From Archaeoglobus sp. JdFR-37 (GTDB lineage Archaea; Halobacteriota; Archaeoglobi; Archaeoglobales; Archaeoglobaceae): 43,738 bases of DNA. Positions within the stretch are counted from its first letter, which is position 1; each line of letters opens with the position of its first letter. Location: the NCBI GenBank assembly GCA_002010215.1, contig MTMY01000024.1, positions 1 through 43,738 on the forward strand. The letters are read 5' to 3'. The notes under the pieces were generated by a model, which did not search any database, was not told the DNA's origin, and saw only the letters and a list, made by a program, of their open reading frames with translations. The position numbers were made by a program, and so were the translations under genes. Of this stretch, positions 1 through 20,966 are shown piece after piece.

Positions 1-2216
1 CTGTTCAAGTTCGCGTGGATGCTGGATTTCATGGCGTTAACGTCGACATGCTTGGGAGCTATTCCTCCGGTGTCGTGGCATGAAACACAGTCTGGTCCGC
101 CTGCAGTTCCTGGATCCAAGCTGTGGGAGAAGTTGAGAGTGGTTAAAGCATAACTTCCATTCAGAGCATGACAGGTGTTACACACACTGTCTGAATAGTC
201 TGTCGATAAAAAGCTCGTATGATCTGTCCAACCCGGCTTTCCTGTATTGTCAACATCAATGAGTGGTGGTATTGGACTGAATCGATCTCCCCTATAATAA
301 ATCGCACCACTGTAATGGCAGTCGGCACACCAATATGTGCTAGCTAGATCTGGACTGTTCTTAACATTGTTGGGGTCGTCCATAAGCCACATTACGTTTC
401 CTAACGCGGTGACATTATGCTTGGTATTTCCATGACAGTAGTCGCATGCTTCGAGTTCGCTTGTCCAGTAATTGCCCCAGATCGTCCCATTTGAAACATT
501 TGATGAGTGCTTAAGCGGGTCGGGTATAATCGGGGCTCCATTGATACCAGAAACAGAGGTTCCGGGCTGATGGCACGATGTACAGTCAACGGCAGAAGCT
601 GGAGAAGTTGTGAATGTACCAAATGCTGTGAGATACTTTACGCCGTGAATATTTCTGTTCTCACCTGTCTCGAAGTGACAGGTTTCACAATTCACAATGC
701 TGCCACCATTGTGGGAACTCTTATCGCCATGACAATTTTGACAATATGTGTCTAACGTTACAATTGGTTTTTGAAGGGTGGACTCATGTATCAGACCAGT
801 ATTGTGGCATGTGGAATTTGTACAAGTAGGAGATGGATAGTTTGTTGCATGATCAGGCACGTTTTTACTCCATATGTCAGACATTGCAACACTGAAAGCG
901 GTTGTGGTGTTCTGGTGGCAGTAGGCACAATTGTCTGATGCGCCACTATCCCATGTTCTCAAATCTGCTCTGCTTTTTCCGTAATGGCTTGGATTTGCAA
1001 AGTTGTTTTCTGCTGCTGTCGGAATGGAGTAGGTATTTTTCATTTCATCAAGGTTATGGCAGAGGGTACAGGACTCGGAATCGGTTGCTGCTGAAATTGC
1101 TGCTTTTATGTCTTGCCCCGACTTGAAATGTTCTGCTACAACGGGGGCTCCTGAGTAAGTTCCATCATGGCATTCGTAGCAGTAATTTGTGTTTGCATCG
1201 GTGGCAACGAAGTCCTTCTCCATGTAGTTAGTTGCGTTGGTGTGGCACTCCATACAGTCCCAGTAAGAGCCGGAGGGGTTGCTGGTGTTGAGGTTGTTGT
1301 GGATGGAAACGTTAAAGGCTGAGAAGTCGACCTCTCCTGGTGAGGCTCCTGAAATGGAGAAATACTTCCATGGGACAGCTGTCTGTTCATCAGAGCTTAC
1401 AACAGTTGCTGAAGCATTATGACATGCTTCACATGCATAGGGTTCCGGTTTTAAGTTGGAAGGAGTTGACCATGTTTTTTTCCCGTTATGACAATTGTTA
1501 CAGCTATGTTCTGGAAGAAAGTCCACGACACCATTGTTATGCCTAGGATCCATGCTGTCAGGATGACAGTGATAACAGCCTACTTCACCGTTTGGCCCAG
1601 GATTGCTATATGATTTCTCTACCGCTTTCCAAGAGTGGGCACTGAACTTGCCTGTCTCTCTTTCCTCGAGGGGCATGAATTCATGGCAGTTGCTGCACGG
1701 CACATAACCTTGCGTTCCAAACCCCCAGTTATCAGGATCATCGCTGGATTGATACCAGCTCCCTTGTGGTGCGTCGTTAAATTTTCCAGTTCCCCAGCTT
1801 AATGTACCGTGATTTTTGTTTGTTATCTCATTTCCAGTCCTCGGATCATATACATGGCAAGTTCCACTACATTTACCGCCATTTACATCCACGCTCATAG
1901 AACTCGTGTCAATAGCATTCGTATTAGCGAGATTTACAGTTATTATTCCATCACCATGGTTCATCCCTGCATGACAGGCTCTGCATTGCAAGAAATTTTT
2001 ATGTGCACCGTGCTTTCCACCAAGCTTGTTCTTTGCATCCAATCCGTGACACATTCCGTTAGCAGAACAATCCTTGATTGGTTGCTTGTTGTTGTTTGAA
2101 TCGATCCAGTACATCTGGGCATCCCTAGCAGCCTCTGCAATTAACGTTACACTAAGAACAATAGCTATAGCTAAAGCTATCATTAGAACGGTTCCTTTTT
2201 TATTTTCCAAACACAT
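1..2216 (-). CDS. Large secreted multiheme c-type cytochrome (partial, runs off the left edge; >=738 aa, >=19 heme motifs)
   Basis: Manual translation from ATG 2216 is open to position 3: MCLENKKGTVLMIALAIAIVLSVTLIAEA-ARDAQ... (signal peptide with AEA cleavage site). Sixteen CxxCH motifs: CRACH, CSNCH, CYHCH, CNNCH, CEACH, CMECH, CYECH, CTLCH, CAYCH, CQNCH, CETCH, CTSCH, CDYCH, CADCH, CNTCH, CVSCH. Also CSANGMCH, CSGTCH and CTNSTCH, plus many spacer His. Absent from the ORF track because there is no stop in the window. Confidence 0.97.
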   Translation of the reverse strand, partial: MCLENKKGTVLMIALAIAIVLSVTLIAEAARDAQMYWIDSNNNKQPIKDCSANGMCHGLDAKNKLGGKHGAHKNFLQCRACHAGMNHGDGIITVNLANTNAIDTSSMSVDVNGGKCSGTCHVYDPRTGNEITNKNHGTLSWGTGKFNDAPQGSWYQSSDDPDNWGFGTQGYVPCSNCHEFMPLEERETGKFSAHSWKAVEKSYSNPGPNGEVGCYHCHPDSMDPRHNNGVVDFLPEHSCNNCHNGKKTWSTPSNLKPEPYACEACHNASATVVSSDEQTAVPWKYFSISGASPGEVDFSAFNVSIHNNLNTSNPSGSYWDCMECHTNATNYMEKDFVATDANTNYCYECHDGTYSGAPVVAEHFKSGQDIKAAISAATDSESCTLCHNLDEMKNTYSIPTAAENNFANPSHYGKSRADLRTWDSGASDNCAYCHQNTTTAFSVAMSDIWSKNVPDHATNYPSPTCTNSTCHNTGLIHESTLQKPIVTLDTYCQNCHGDKSSHNGGSIVNCETCHFETGENRNIHGVKYLTAFGTFTTSPASAVDCTSCHQPGTSVSGINGAPIIPDPLKHSSNVSNGTIWGNYWTSELEACDYCHGNTKHNVTALGNVMWLMDDPNNVKNSPDLASTYWCADCHYSGAIYYRGDRFSPIPPLIDVDNTGKPGWTDHTSFLSTDYSDSVCNTCHALNGSYALTTLNFSHSLDPGTAGGPDCVSCHDTGGIAPKHVDVNAMKSSIHANLN

Positions 2217-2541: not shown

Positions 2542-3234
2542 TCAATCAACGAGCCTCTTCTTCACAAAAGGATTTCTCTCTGCAATCTCCTTCAACTTTG
2601 CTTCAAAACTGTCAAAAACTGGCTCATTCAGAAAAACACCCGTCCTACCCACCTCTCTCCTTCTTTCAAGAACTCTGAACCTTTCAACCACTATCTCCAT
2701 ACCAACTCCAAGAAGCTTTGATAATTCTGAAGGGCTAATATCGCAGCACGGAATTTCTTTATGCCCATTCTCCGTAGGTATTATCAGCATCAGCCTCTTG
2801 TCAACCCCCATGACTCTTTTTTCCTCCTCAATCCCTCTGAGATCTACAGCACCTCCGAAATTATAGAAATCAAGCTCCCTCTCTCGCATTCTAACCAGAG
2901 GGAAGCTCACAGTTGCGTCACTCAGTATTATTTCTCCTTTAATGGCATAATTTGGAGTTGCCTGAACTAACCTTCTTTCGAGAATTTCAAATTCTGAAAG
3001 GGCGAGTTCTATGCGGTACGATGGGATTTTGATGGGGATGAAGACATCAACATCGCTGTCCTTGTTCACATCCCCCCTTGCAACGCTACCATAAACCATA
3101 CTTGGGATACCACTATTTCTCAACCTTTCCATGACTCTTCTAGCTATCTCACGCTTCTCCTGGAGCAACTTCCACTGCTCTTTGCTGTATACAACCTCCT
3201 TTGGTTCACCGAACGTGGCAGTTCTCCTCCTCAT
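2542..3234 (-). CDS. Predicted archaeal nucleotidyltransferase (Pol-beta superfamily, COG2413-like)
   Basis: Signature YGSVARGDVNKDSDVD; 230 aa. Confidence 0.85.
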   Translation of the reverse strand: MRRRTATFGEPKEVVYSKEQWKLLQEKREIARRVMERLRNSGIPSMVYGSVARGDVNKDSDVDVFIPIKIPSYRIELALSEFEILERRLVQATPNYAIKGEIILSDATVSFPLVRMRERELDFYNFGGAVDLRGIEEEKRVMGVDKRLMLIIPTENGHKEIPCCDISPSELSKLLGVGMEIVVERFRVLERRREVGRTGVFLNEPVFDSFEAKLKEIAERNPFVKKRLVD

Positions 3235-3279
3235 TGCATTATTGCACCATTCTATTGTATTCTTTATACTACACCATCA

Positions 3280-3588
3280 TTATTGTACCGTTTCGTCAAT
3301 CCACTTCAGATACTCACGTAGCCCATCTTCAACGGCAAAGGCACAAATGCATGGGACAGTGTAGCTGTGAATTTCCTTAACCTCCTTCTTTATTTCCTTC
3401 ATTTTTTCGGCTTTAGTTTTAATAATCAAGCCATATTCCTCTGCCTCCTCAATCTTCCCCTCCCACCAGTACATTGAGTGTATAGGAAAGAAATTCACGC
3501 ATGCTGCCAGCTTTTTTTCCAGCAAATACCTTGCAATTCTCTCGGCTTCTTCTTTCGAGGAGGCTGTGACATATACAAAAGTATACAT
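3280..3588 (-). CDS. cutA: Divalent-cation tolerance protein CutA
   Basis: Motifs LAACVN, SMYWWEGKIEE and HSYTVPCI. Confidence 0.95.
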   Translation of the reverse strand: MYTFVYVTASSKEEAERIARYLLEKKLAACVNFFPIHSMYWWEGKIEEAEEYGLIIKTKAEKMKEIKKEVKEIHSYTVPCICAFAVEDGLREYLKWIDETVQ

Positions 3589-17104: not shown

Positions 17105-18133
17105 TCAGTGCTCCCTAGTGACGATGTAATCTGCAAGCTGTTCCATCAGCTTTCTGGCATGGGTTTCAGGCAGCACCTTCAGACTCTCCTTTGCCCTCTC
17201 AGCAAACTGCAATGCCTTGCTTTTGGCATATTCTATTGCCCCGCAATCTTCCAGTCTTTTGACTGCTTTCTCAATCTCCTCCAAGCTAGCCTTCCCTTTT
17301 CCGTAGATGTCAATCTCCACTCCCATTTCCATAGCTCTCAACATTATCAGAGTCTTTTTGCCCTCAACAATGTCGCTACCCCAGTCCTTTCCGATTTTCT
17401 CCTTGCCCACAAGATCGAGAATGTCATCCTGAATCTGGAATGCTATGCCGCAATTTATTCCATAATCCCAGAGGGCCTTAACTACTTCTTCCCCTTCGCC
17501 ATAAAGAACCGCTGGAAGGGTTGAAGATGCTGCAAGAAGAGTTGCAGTCTTCTTCTGCACCATTTCAAGATACTCTTCCTCTTTCACACTCTCTCTATCT
17601 TCAAAACTCATGTCCAAGTACTGTCCCTCGCATATTTTCACACACACATCTGCTAGAAGCTTTGAAGCTTTGACAGCATTCTCTGCCTCGACATTACAGC
17701 CTGCAAGAATTTCGAAGGCTTCAGCAAAAAGAGTGTCACCAGCAAGGATGGCAACAGGTTCACCAAATTCAGCATGAACTGTTTTTACGCCTCTCCTCAT
17801 CTCATCTCTGTCCATAATATCATCATGCACAAGAGTAAATGTGTGTATTACCTCTACAGCCAGAGCAGCTGGCAGAATGGGTTTCCAGTCTCTCCCGATT
17901 GCTTCACATGAAATTAGAGTTAACGCAGGGCGAAGTCTTTTCCCGCCAGCATAGAGGAGGTGTCGAGTAGCTTTATACAGGCCTTCAGGTTCTTTAACTG
18001 GAAGATATTCTCTGATGGCTTTCTCGATTATCCCAGCTTTTGCGGCAATTTCCTTTTTGAACTCATCACTCTCGCTCATACCACTACTCTCATCACTCTG
18101 ATTCATTCTATCCATTTCGCTCATTTCACTCAT
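17105..18133 (-). CDS. idsA: Geranylgeranyl diphosphate synthase (polyprenyl synthetase)
   Basis: GGKRLRP, HDDIMD and FQIQDD motifs; ATG 18133 overlaps the fni stop; low-complexity N-terminal extension. Confidence 0.93.
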   Translation of the reverse strand: MSEMSEMDRMNQSDESSGMSESDEFKKEIAAKAGIIEKAIREYLPVKEPEGLYKATRHLLYAGGKRLRPALTLISCEAIGRDWKPILPAALAVEVIHTFTLVHDDIMDRDEMRRGVKTVHAEFGEPVAILAGDTLFAEAFEILAGCNVEAENAVKASKLLADVCVKICEGQYLDMSFEDRESVKEEEYLEMVQKKTATLLAASSTLPAVLYGEGEEVVKALWDYGINCGIAFQIQDDILDLVGKEKIGKDWGSDIVEGKKTLIMLRAMEMGVEIDIYGKGKASLEEIEKAVKRLEDCGAIEYAKSKALQFAERAKESLKVLPETHARKLMEQLADYIVTREH

Positions 18134-19224
18134 CTGCTTAACCCCCTGAACTGCATCCATTCCTTAAGCTTTCCGGTGATGAACACTTCTACATCCTTCA
18201 GCTCATCAATTCTGGAGCAGCCAGTGAGAAACATAGCTGTTTTGAGACCTCTGATGAAGTAATTTATGGTTTTGACTACTTCATCAACGCTTACCGTTGC
18301 AGGATGAAGAAATGGTAGGGCTGATGAAGCCATAGATGCTCCTAGGGCTAAGCTTTTGGCCACGTCAATCCCATTCCTAATCCCACCGGTGGCAATGGTG
18401 GGGAGTATCCTACGTGTCTCCACTACACAAAAGGCTGTTGGAATTCCCCAGTTCCAGAAATCCTTTCCTATATTTTTCGAGACTTCATCATTCAATCGGT
18501 ACACCTCAACCCCGCTCCAGCTGGTTCCACCCTTTCCGCCAACATCCACTGCATCAACACCGCATTCCTTCAGTTTTGCGGCCATATCTCCCGTTATTCC
18601 AGCTCCTGTCTCCTTCACTATTACCGGAACCTTCAACTCCTTACTTGCTTCCTCTATCGCCTTCAAAGCCCCCTTTGCCTTCGTCTCGCCTTCAGGCTGA
18701 ATTGCCTCCTGAAGGAAATTGAGGTGAATCGCAATGGCATCAGCATCAATCATCTCGATGGCTTTCTCGGCTATCTCGACTCCCTTCTCTATCAACTGGG
18801 GAATGCCTATGTTGGCGTATATGAAAGCGTTCGGAGCTTTATCTCTGACAACAGAGAAGGTGTCAACAACACTCTCATCTTCTATTGCAGCTCTCTGACT
18901 TCCAACACCCATACCTATACCCAGCATTTCGGCAGCCTCAGCCAGATTTGCATTTATCACCTTGGTTTCTGGATGGCCACCGGTCATTGAAGCAATAAGA
19001 AGTGGTGCAGAAAAGCCATGATCCAAGAAGGTAACAGATGTATCAACTTCATCCAGATCCACTTCGGGCAGGGAACGATGGATAAGCATGACGTCCTCAA
19101 AGCCCGTATAGCTTGATTCCACATCCTCCTCAATACATATCCTGACATGATCCAGCTTTCTACTTTTAACCCTCTCACCTGTTGCATTTGATGGGTTACC
19201 GTATGATGGTTCCAACCCTCTCAC
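18130..19224 (-). CDS. fni: Type 2 isopentenyl-diphosphate delta-isomerase (start may be TTG 19215)
   Basis: RKLDH, MTGG, GVGSQR, HLNFLQE, KETG and GGTSW motifs. Confidence 0.96.
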   Translation of the reverse strand: MRGLEPSYGNPSNATGERVKSRKLDHVRICIEEDVESSYTGFEDVMLIHRSLPEVDLDEVDTSVTFLDHGFSAPLLIASMTGGHPETKVINANLAEAAEMLGIGMGVGSQRAAIEDESVVDTFSVVRDKAPNAFIYANIGIPQLIEKGVEIAEKAIEMIDADAIAIHLNFLQEAIQPEGETKAKGALKAIEEASKELKVPVIVKETGAGITGDMAAKLKECGVDAVDVGGKGGTSWSGVEVYRLNDEVSKNIGKDFWNWGIPTAFCVVETRRILPTIATGGIRNGIDVAKSLALGASMASSALPFLHPATVSVDEVVKTINYFIRGLKTAMFLTGCSRIDELKDVEVFITGKLKEWMQFRGLSR

Positions 19225-19939
19225 CCCTCAGAAATTTCTCTATAGCTCCCGGATTAGCCTGAAAAACAGCAACTTCACATCCAATCCTGAGTATAGCTTC
19301 TAATTTACCCCTCATGCCCCCGGTCACATCCGATTTATTTCCAGCGTCTCCGATCTTATCAAGGATTTTCTGAAGCTCCTCGCGGCTTAGTTCATCCATA
19401 ACTTTATCCTCAATCAAAAGGGGCGTGTCGGTAGCGAAGCCAACTCTATCCGCTCCAAGCCCATTGGCGAGCATTTCCACTATCTTATCCCCTGATATGA
19501 CCCTATACTGGCCATCTCCTGCCACCATATCACCGTGAAGAACTGGTACCATTCCATTATCCACAAGCTGCTGTATGAGCTCTAAGGGAACTGTGAATCG
19601 ATCATTCTCAATGGAGAAAGCGTTGAATGGGGATACACTTATTGCTGGAACTCCTCTGGCCATCAGCTCTCTGCATATCATCAGATTTAGCTCCCTGCAC
19701 GAAGCATGAGTTTCTGCTAGGCCTAATGGATGAACTCTGTGGAGCAGATCATACTTTTCCACATGAGGGTGACCGAAGGAGCCAACACCGTGAACCAGTA
19801 TGAGCCTGTCGGGAATTCTGGAGATTTCCTCCGCTATTCTTCTGATTTCCTCCATCTTCGCCCTGTTGGTGACTCCTTTGGTCTTATCTGTTATAACTGC
19901 CCCTCCTATCTTGAGTATTCTAAGAGATCTATTGCTCAA
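19196..19939 (-). CDS. ipk: Isopentenyl phosphate kinase
   Basis: LKIGGAVITDK, HGVGSFGH, LHGD, SGD and DVTGGM motifs; located in the mevalonate cluster. Confidence 0.93.
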   Translation of the reverse strand: MSNRSLRILKIGGAVITDKTKGVTNRAKMEEIRRIAEEISRIPDRLILVHGVGSFGHPHVEKYDLLHRVHPLGLAETHASCRELNLMICRELMARGVPAISVSPFNAFSIENDRFTVPLELIQQLVDNGMVPVLHGDMVAGDGQYRVISGDKIVEMLANGLGADRVGFATDTPLLIEDKVMDELSREELQKILDKIGDAGNKSDVTGGMRGKLEAILRIGCEVAVFQANPGAIEKFLRGERVGTIIR

Positions 19940-20807
19940 CTCTAACGCCCTCCTTCTCTGCTCTCACAATCATCCCGCCAAATTTTTGGGCTGCATTCAT
20001 AAGCTTATCCTCTTGGCCAATCCCTATAACGCATCCGCCACCTCCAGCTCCAGTGAGCTTGGCAGCAATGCCGAATTCATCAAGCTTCTCTATTAGCTCC
20101 TCAATTTTCCTGCTGGAAACTCCTATGGCTTTGAGCAGAGCCTGATTTATCCTGAACAGCTCTGGATAATTCTCCTGATTTGACACGTTCTTGATGGCTT
20201 CAATCGACACAACGTCGATGGCATCAAAAATCTTCTCATAAACTTCCGGCATGACCTTTCTTCGTTCTGCAACTCCTCCCACCATTTCCGAGGTTATAGA
20301 TTTCTCCCCTGTATCCACAACCAGAAATTCCATATCGAGACTAATTGGCTTTCTCTCGGGGATTTGCCATGCACCACCGAAGGTTGAAACAAAGGGATCG
20401 GTTCCGCTCCCAACCCCTTGAACGTCAAGTTCCACCTTCCTTGCCAGTTCAAATACATCCTCTTTATCAAGCCCAGCTTCAAATTCAGCATCCAACGCAG
20501 CAAGGGTTGCGACTGTGACAGCAGCAGAACTGCCCAACCCAGATGCGACGGGAATTTCGCTTTCAATCTTTACGTTTACCCCGTTAATCTTTTCAATTTC
20601 AGAAAAGCGCTTGATGGCGAAGCTGACATAGGGGTGCACTTCAAAATCCAGTGAGGTTGTCCCGAGAGGGGAGGTTATCCTGATGCTTGAACCCTTTGAT
20701 ACATCTACATAGCACCTGAGATTTATGGCAGTAACGAGAGCATGCCTGCCATACACCACCGCATGCTCCCCAAACAGAAAGGCCTTCCCCGGAGCTGAGG
20801 CTCTCAT
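19929..20807 (-). CDS. mvk: Mevalonate kinase
   Basis: APGKAFLFGEHAVVYG, GHMP motif PVASGLGSSAA, and KLTGAGGGG. Confidence 0.96.
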   Translation of the reverse strand: MRASAPGKAFLFGEHAVVYGRHALVTAINLRCYVDVSKGSSIRITSPLGTTSLDFEVHPYVSFAIKRFSEIEKINGVNVKIESEIPVASGLGSSAAVTVATLAALDAEFEAGLDKEDVFELARKVELDVQGVGSGTDPFVSTFGGAWQIPERKPISLDMEFLVVDTGEKSITSEMVGGVAERRKVMPEVYEKIFDAIDVVSIEAIKNVSNQENYPELFRINQALLKAIGVSSRKIEELIEKLDEFGIAAKLTGAGGGGCVIGIGQEDKLMNAAQKFGGMIVRAEKEGVRVEQ

Positions 20808-20966
20808 CGTTTTCCGCACTGCAGGGTGATTAATAAATTTTGGGTGGAAGAAGGTTTAATACTATATCTTGAAATTGTTTCACATTCAATCATTCCATTG
20901 TCTAGCTGCTAAATAAGACGAGGAGAGCTTTCAAAGCTTTTTACCCTTGCCACATAACACAAGTGG

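Follow-up and report, generated by a model that had tools for sequence, protein, structure and literature searches.

The window analysed here, a stretch of 43,738 nucleotides, is the entire contig C15 of genome G000, a metagenome bin of 1.97 Mb in 52 contigs (94.5% complete, 0.09% contamination), and its position 1 is a contig end, hence an assembly break. At this end, translation of positions 3-2216 on the reverse strand yields 738 residues without a stop codon (protein P0001). The first-pass annotation of this DNA had proposed a 738-codon frame, still open at the window edge, as the beginning of a giant secreted multiheme cytochrome; the frame is confirmed and so is its open end, which coincides with the contig end. 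The frame runs off the edge because the contig stops there, which is probably also why it is missing from the track of open reading frames, and rather than meeting a stop codon or a frameshift just past the edge it goes on in a segment shared with a paralog. An upstream GTG start at position 2255 was considered and dropped for the ATG at 2216, which agrees with the called start of the paralog. The features at this end of the window are the following:

1..101, reverse strand: first 101 bp of a 3,234-bp segment common to this gene and the paralog on contig C27, seen in identical contig ends and a double-depth unitig, with its far end on contigs C10 and C16
3..2216, reverse strand: first 738 codons of the gene for a giant multiheme cytochrome c (P0001), by translation; full length estimated at 1,770 aa with 36 heme motifs
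33..1307, reverse strand: complete 12-heme module (approximately residues 304-728), matching the next module at 36% and placed by window scan and module tree
1437..2129, reverse strand: rare N-terminal head (residues 30-260), in which CX5CH and CX3CH are among the six heme motifs; the next motif, the seventh, is at residue 262
2130..2216, reverse strand: predicted Sec-type signal peptide (residues 1-29), the only hydrophobic segment, with a cleavage site deduced from the alignment with homolog P0006
2292..2299, reverse strand: candidate TATA-like TTTAAATA, which precedes the ATG by about 76 nt, read from the sequence
2542..3588, reverse strand: flanking cutA and a nucleotidyltransferase-like gene (labelled by eye; no NCBIfam match), whose synteny marks the insertion site

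The visible part of P0001 contains 16 CxxCH motifs together with a CX5CH at residue 50, a CX3CH at 116 and a CX4CH at 465, so the 19 heme motifs counted earlier hold if non-canonical spacings are included but not as CxxCH alone. These motifs use 38 of the 39 cysteines, the remaining one being Cys2 in the leader, and in 2,000 shuffles of the protein CxxCH occurred 0.11 times on average and at most twice. The sole hydrophobic segment is N-terminal (19-residue Kyte-Doolittle peak of 2.77 at residue 9), and P0006 becomes alignable to P0001 from about residue 30, past an unrelated leader, which suggests that the signal is cleaved near A29. Hydropathy and the start of this alignment thus both support the Sec-type signal peptide that had been proposed. 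Upstream, the leader and start region of the gene are 74% identical to those of the paralog over 183 bp; a BRE-TATA pattern gave no match at the TATA-like TTTAAATA, and a hairpin in the leader upstream of the start codon was not significant (z -1.3 and -1.1). A terminator scan downstream of the stop codon found none, though the stretch is U-rich.

The continuation of the gene beyond the window could be traced through a repeat. Contig C27 ends within a second giant cytochrome gene, and its final 101 bp are identical to window positions 1-101. In the unique part (705 codons here), P0001 and this paralog have a protein identity of 28%, and the shared segment begins exactly at codon 706 and extends beyond the stop codon. 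Contigs C10 and C16 in turn open with an identical 101 bp, made up of the final 20 codons with their stop and a further 36 nt. Read data were taken from four runs (X1-X4) of 19 listed, of which X1-X3 may be source reads of this DNA while X4 is not so marked. In three of the four (X1, X3 and X4), a 3,234-bp unitig starts at window position 101 and leaves over the edge at about twice the depth of its flanks (162.8 versus 82.6 and 79.5, 90.2 versus 50.2 and 52.9, and 25.8 versus 12.5, respectively). Run X2 gave a unitig of 4,601 bp with a depth of 96 versus 59.8 and 73.6, without a clean twofold fit; this longer unitig may come from an absent exit or from a strain in which the duplication extends further. 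With a segment of 3,234 bp, (3,234-36)/3 gives 1,066 codons including the stop, in frame, which together with the 705 unique codons makes a product of 1,770 aa and, for the paralog, one of 1,794 aa. This latter length was predicted by the segment arithmetic ahead of the match to database protein P0069, which has 1,794 aa, matches the 762 residues of the C27 product without a difference and has the ending seen in C10 and C16. The same tail, with two substitutions, occurs in P0033 (from a 3,283-bp contig), and P0030 spans the junction independently with a body of the P0001 type (67-73%). A second assembly (4 and 6 base differences in 10 kb) breaks at the same repeat, and a pattern scan of the metagenome extended C15 by 26 bases only and did not recover the repeat contig.

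Because the shared unitig, the starts of C10 and C16, and P0069 close in frame, the full P0001 product can be placed within tight bounds at 1,770 aa and 36 hemes, the head being joined to the stop by assembly graph and synteny rather than by a spanning contig or read. The earlier suggestion that the cytochrome is far larger than its visible part is in agreement with this length. Recent duplication or gene conversion is proposed to have given both paralogs their identical last 1,065 codons. That the shared segment is instead an artefact, in which two co-occurring strains with one gene each were merged in one bin, has hardly any probability, although G000 is a metagenome bin and run X2 departs from twofold depth: in X1 and X3 the two entries have about equal depth and the repeat about their sum, the two exits are distinct and each has its own conserved synteny, contamination is 0.09%, and the second, slightly different assembly breaks at the same place.

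The estimated product would consist of a signal (residues 1-29), a 7-heme head (50-262), a first module of 12 hemes (321-710), a second of 12 hemes (755-1149), five further hemes (1187-1307) and 457 heme-free residues. It would carry 32 CxxCH and 4 non-canonical motifs, 36 in all, and weigh about 210 kDa with hemes. The heme region has 39 spare histidines for 36 hemes, many of them conserved across 25 aligned sequences, a supply that would suffice for bis-His ligation throughout.

Synteny assigns the two exits of the repeat to the two genes, no read spanning it. In G068, cutA, the nucleotidyltransferase-like gene, an MFS gene and lysS are adjacent, and in G019 and G065 the nucleotidyltransferase-like gene runs directly into lysS (14 loci were inspected, most others differing in their neighbours). 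In G000, cutA and the nucleotidyltransferase-like gene lie upstream of the cytochrome gene in the window, and MFS-lysS open contig C10. Since relatives join these flank genes directly, the P0001 gene is most simply read as a second, stand-alone copy inserted between the nucleotidyltransferase-like gene and MFS-lysS; in G001, of the same genus, both relevant contigs end nearby in other contexts and do not fix the insertion site. The flanks on the cutA side and on the MFS-lysS side bear out the location among housekeeping genes noted earlier, and further into the window, positions 17105-20819 (reverse strand) hold an ordinary isoprenoid cluster with genes for mevalonate kinase, an isopentenyl phosphate kinase-like protein, type 2 IPP isomerase and prenyl diphosphate synthase. 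The C27 paralog and the G019 gene have the same genes upstream, and the small-cytochrome cluster that follows on C16 is similar too; by synteny, the cluster of ECN type would thus go to the paralog and MFS-lysS to the P0001 copy. The paralog itself (G000:C27:3-2288 plus G000:C16:1-3306; 1,794 aa) has 33 motifs and an MG2-type head. Past the repeat, C16 carries an AvECN-like tetraheme gene, a second tetraheme gene and a decaheme gene, in an order similar to that of Geoglobus acetivorans; the first of them matches PDB 8E5G (E 8e-50), which is AvECN (PMC12954529). A 5'-truncated cytochrome gene of the ECN-cluster type also stands at the start of another contig (G000:C30:1-960), its DNA 80% like part of the C16 decaheme gene, and marks another assembly break at similar cytochrome genes.

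P0001 belongs to a family of which 19 homologs were found, with 1,327-3,521 aa and 20-71 CxxCH motifs, some of them in ANME and Methanoperedens. Within the class, family matches occur in 6 of 96 genomes, G000 included, G001 (230 contigs) having none, and a scan of genome contigs for relatives returned nothing beyond one distant Methanosarcinaceae locus. In 4 of the 5 other genomes the family gene lies beside tetraheme ECN-like genes (homology scored for G066 only), G068 being broken there. Strong ECN homologs are found in G067 and G007, which have no giant of this family; the giant is therefore not needed for filaments. Residues 262-738 of P0001 match at 58% a 1,732-aa, 33-CxxCH protein of Ferroglobus placidus, labelled here Ferp_0670 by counting accessions, as was a 1,642-aa protein (Ferp_0672) of the same cluster beside Ferp_0668. 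The family is not new and belongs with the known giants of F. placidus and G. acetivorans. Among the carriers that the first-pass annotation had named, Geoglobus, Ferroglobus and ANME stand, whereas A. veneficus is credited with three cytochromes of more than five hemes in the available part of PMC4600277. The portion of PMC9012536 at hand assigns giant cytochromes to ANME and otherwise only to Geoglobus and Ferroglobus. The 33-CxxCH protein had been noted in PMC4429474, which in its accessible text proposes large cytochromes with beta-sandwich chains as extracellular conductors, and a subseafloor Archaeoglobi genome lacking dsrAB is described, in the excerpt available, with cytochromes of up to 31 hemes, one of them homologous to a large G. 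acetivorans protein (bioRxiv 10.1101/390617).

Like the Ferroglobus and Geoglobus giants, P0001 combines a signal peptide, modules of about 420 aa with 12 hemes, and more than 20 motifs in one secreted chain with a heme-free beta-sandwich tail (about 460 aa) and no C-terminal anchor. The G. acetivorans protein WP_048092876.1 matches the shared half at 70%, and G. acetivorans carries the ortholog of the paralog. In contrast to the giants of both species, P0001 has a rare 7-heme head instead of an MG2/Ig-type one and occupies what is by synteny a stand-alone locus, and unlike P0001 and its paralog, with 1,065 codons in common, the F. placidus paralogs diverge, their tails matching P0033 at 33% and 29%. 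The large multiheme cytochromes of ANME and Methanoperedens, divided into types A, B and C with 20-80 hemes and proposed as surface conduits (PMC9012536, as far as its text was accessible), resemble P0001 in being many-heme, secreted and built of homologous modules, and G000 shares with these organisms a duplicated CcmF. However, types A and B have an S-layer domain or C-terminal helix and type C a pectin-lyase-like N-terminus, and P0001 has neither. AvECN (PDB 8E5G) is a polymerising 4-heme subunit whereas P0001 would be one 36-heme chain, both being extracellular heme chains (predicted so for P0001); a comparison of P0001 with PDB sequences gave no match, AvECN included.

Beside the shared 3' half, which is the most unusual feature and lies outside the window except for its first 101 bp, the protein has a rare head. 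The only relative found for this head is P0006 (52%, one database protein), and it was found in none of the 95 other genomes of the class (0/95). A profile search with the head against 1.84 billion representatives returned two matches that lack a heme motif and were discarded as spurious. Atlas feature matches of 0.90-0.92 link it to clusters carrying PF09698, while TIGR01904 did not match P0001 and gave P0006 16 bits, below the cut-off of 27; the resemblance to the Geobacter CxxxxCH...CxxCH type (TIGR01904/PF09698) is therefore taken as a lead only. From sequence comparison, P0001 is a mosaic. In a window scan, residues 31-230 resemble P0006 alone (54-57%), residues 231-430 have P0006 as best match (65-72%), residues 431-630 are like P0030 and, at 64-69%, the 1,732-aa protein of F. 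placidus, and the remainder is of the G. acetivorans type. The 12-heme module itself is composite, its first part P0006-like and residues 416-705 like the 1,732-aa F. placidus protein (64%), with an SH-aLRT of 100 in a quick module tree. A further tree was computed for the C-terminal 625 residues, using 11 rows, without two long rows of the module tree and with a group picked after earlier comparisons had been seen. In it, the P0006 tail groups with P0031 (100/99), which has the other head type, and forcing it together with the tail used by P0001 is rejected (p-AU 0.0003). Tails thus group by lineage and not by head type, and because this tree splits the P0006 tail from the P0001-type tail, the same head would sit on two lineage-specific tails. 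A further pair, P0032 and P0070, is about 94% identical over 1,071 residues, P0070 having a third head type, and could be paralogs with a partly homogenised tail.

The second copy could be a redundant, near-neutral recombination product whose shared tail reflects a recent accident or dosage and whose head has no special role; module number does vary freely (P0006 is short of 12 hemes, and the F. placidus counterpart of a G066 protein exceeds it by 413 aa) and the head is seen in one other protein only. Nevertheless, the 705 unique codons are intact, with all cysteines paired and just 28% identity to the paralog, and P0006 carries the same head on the tail of another lineage, which makes redundancy quite unlikely. 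A more far-reaching reading, which we put forward tentatively and consider possible rather than probable, is that the paralogs have a constant base and a variable tip, being kept alike in base and tail by gene conversion while their N-terminal heads are swapped. Through repeated conversion, neither the 18-heme base nor the Ig/CBM tail used for docking would drift apart, so that all paralogs would attach at one common surface site, be it S-layer glycan or an ECN filament, and the swapped heads, one of them bacterial CxxxxCH-like, would reach different minerals or partner cells. A comparable arrangement is known from Geobacter sulfurreducens, where the ombB-omaB-omcB set and the ombC-omaC-omcC set have identical inner parts (100%) and a diverged terminal cytochrome (71%) (PMC4589669, from its available part). 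There, the duplication involves separate tandem genes with a porin, whereas here each of two separate loci encodes the constant and the variable part in a single polypeptide, an analogy and not a homology. If the constant-base reading is true, the repeat shared by the paralogs also causes the loss of the tail from short-read assemblies, and such systems are undercounted. The G068 bin likewise breaks within its giant cytochrome gene (G068:C21:1-2991, equal to P0031 residues 1-995), the tail missing, and heme counts from such bins are too low because the shared half is missing from G000 and the tail from G068. A full-text literature search, its coverage leaving out most subscription papers, returned no report on gene conversion of archaeal multiheme-cytochrome genes or on Archaeoglobaceae multiheme cytochromes with carbohydrate-binding domains. 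Already known are the family, the 12-heme module and the proposed role; new, as far as searched, are the occurrence of one 1,065-codon 3' end in two paralogs at separate loci, the rare head moving between tails, and the resulting loss of tails in bins.

The most plausible means of holding such a protein at the cell surface lies in its C-terminal domains. The heme-free tail (457 aa, 63% to G. acetivorans), whose sequence lies outside the window and is taken from P0069 and P0033, is modelled in P0033 with pLDDT mostly above 80, the heme region staying mostly below 60; a single-sequence AlphaFold model of P0001 was unusable (mean pLDDT 31). In the aligned P0033 model, the tail contains a predicted Ig-like domain (Z 12.2, rmsd 2.2, 102 aligned residues) and a CBM-type jelly roll (Z 17.5, rmsd 2.5, 133 aligned residues), the latter a likeness of fold that is separate from glycan binding. 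A third beta domain is modelled, which the fold search barely probed, and the top Foldseek matches were multi-domain with TM-scores near 0.1, informative for the CBM-like domains alone. The product therefore appears to end in an Ig-like domain and one or two carbohydrate-binding-like domains. As for the C-terminal anchor looked for (TM segment, PGF-CTERM or S-layer domain), none was found: the shared half has no TM segment (maximum hydropathy 1.08), no PGF-CTERM was found at the product end, and no S-layer Pfam occurs in the G. acetivorans ortholog or P0006, nor in the precomputed domains of P0033.

Taken together, the product of the P0001 gene is probably a surface conduit for extracellular electron transfer, a prediction based on its sequence. 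In this model, the protein would be exported by Sec and then loaded with heme by Ccm system I, most hemes being bis-His ligated, and signal cleavage would free it from the membrane. Retention at the surface would be non-covalent, most plausibly through C-terminal domains that bind surface glycan or cytochrome filaments. From there, the protein would connect an outside partner, for which Fe(III) minerals are the likeliest choice, with ECN-type filaments or with membrane cytochrome complexes, of which C29 and C42 carry candidates, and would pass electrons between the two sides. As the last 1,065 codons are common to P0001 and its paralog, the cell would have a pair of wires that differ at the tip but not in the base. 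The lack of a membrane anchor once the signal is cleaved also fits an electron store (capacitor) that is shed or loosely attached, or a soluble shuttle, rather than a conduit, but the conserved, predicted binding-type tail makes this very improbable, as does the fact that in 4 of 5 other genomes the family neighbours filament-type cytochrome genes. The physiological role of ECN-type filaments is given as unresolved in PMC13748539 (available text), direct mineral contact is required in these genera according to the summary given in PMC8280799, and the cited literature, in the parts available, contains no tested function for any family member.

The first-pass annotation had made its reading depend on a cytochrome c maturation system, and genes of one are present in G000 alongside the export signal, namely CcmC, CcmE and two CcmF. 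The two ccmF paralogs (G000:C3:17492-19612 and C17:35708-37339) stand apart, and one of them might serve CX3-5CH motifs or giant apoproteins. Eighteen frames in G000 have at least three CxxCH motifs. A large cluster of cytochrome genes, which spans two contigs overlapping by 62 bp (G000:C42:720-7564 plus C29:17567-21410), contains Rieske-, cytochrome b-, NrfD- and ferredoxin-like genes and genes for 4-, 5-, 10- and 12-heme proteins (labels by eye), and is likely the membrane end of the pathway. NarG is above the cut-off, DsrA and McrA were not found in this 94.5% complete bin, and AprA is below the cut-off. The comparison of Fe(III)- with sulfate-grown cells suggested earlier is thus ill-suited to this organism, whose respiratory profile resembles that of F. 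placidus as described in the accessible part of PMC4600277.

This profile also bears on the direction of electron flow. The same anatomy could serve electron uptake (oxidation of Fe(II) or minerals with nitrate) or transfer to a partner cell: NarG is above the cut-off, F. placidus oxidises Fe(II) with nitrate and also reduces Fe(III) (PMC4429474, available part), and ANME and Methanoperedens, in which giants have been proposed to serve interspecies transfer (PMC9012536, same limits), have homologs. However, the ortholog of the paralog is found in G. acetivorans, and Geoglobus uses only Fe(III) among the acceptors tabulated in the accessible text of PMC4600277, and an inward or cell-to-cell use seems rather unlikely. 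As natural variants that share the base and differ in the tip, the two proteins would represent a built-in comparison of the effect of the tip, and the same pair could show what keeps a 36-heme protein without an anchor attached to the cell. Both have a bearing on how hyperthermophilic archaea move electrons across the S-layer to minerals.

Two small contigs of G000 are recorded here as separate observations. Contig C49 (3,893 bp) contains a CRISPR-like array with one 30-bp repeat present 55 times, and in contig C51 (3,507 bp) the last 101 bp recur at positions 146-246; either a tandem repeat or a small circular element could explain this.
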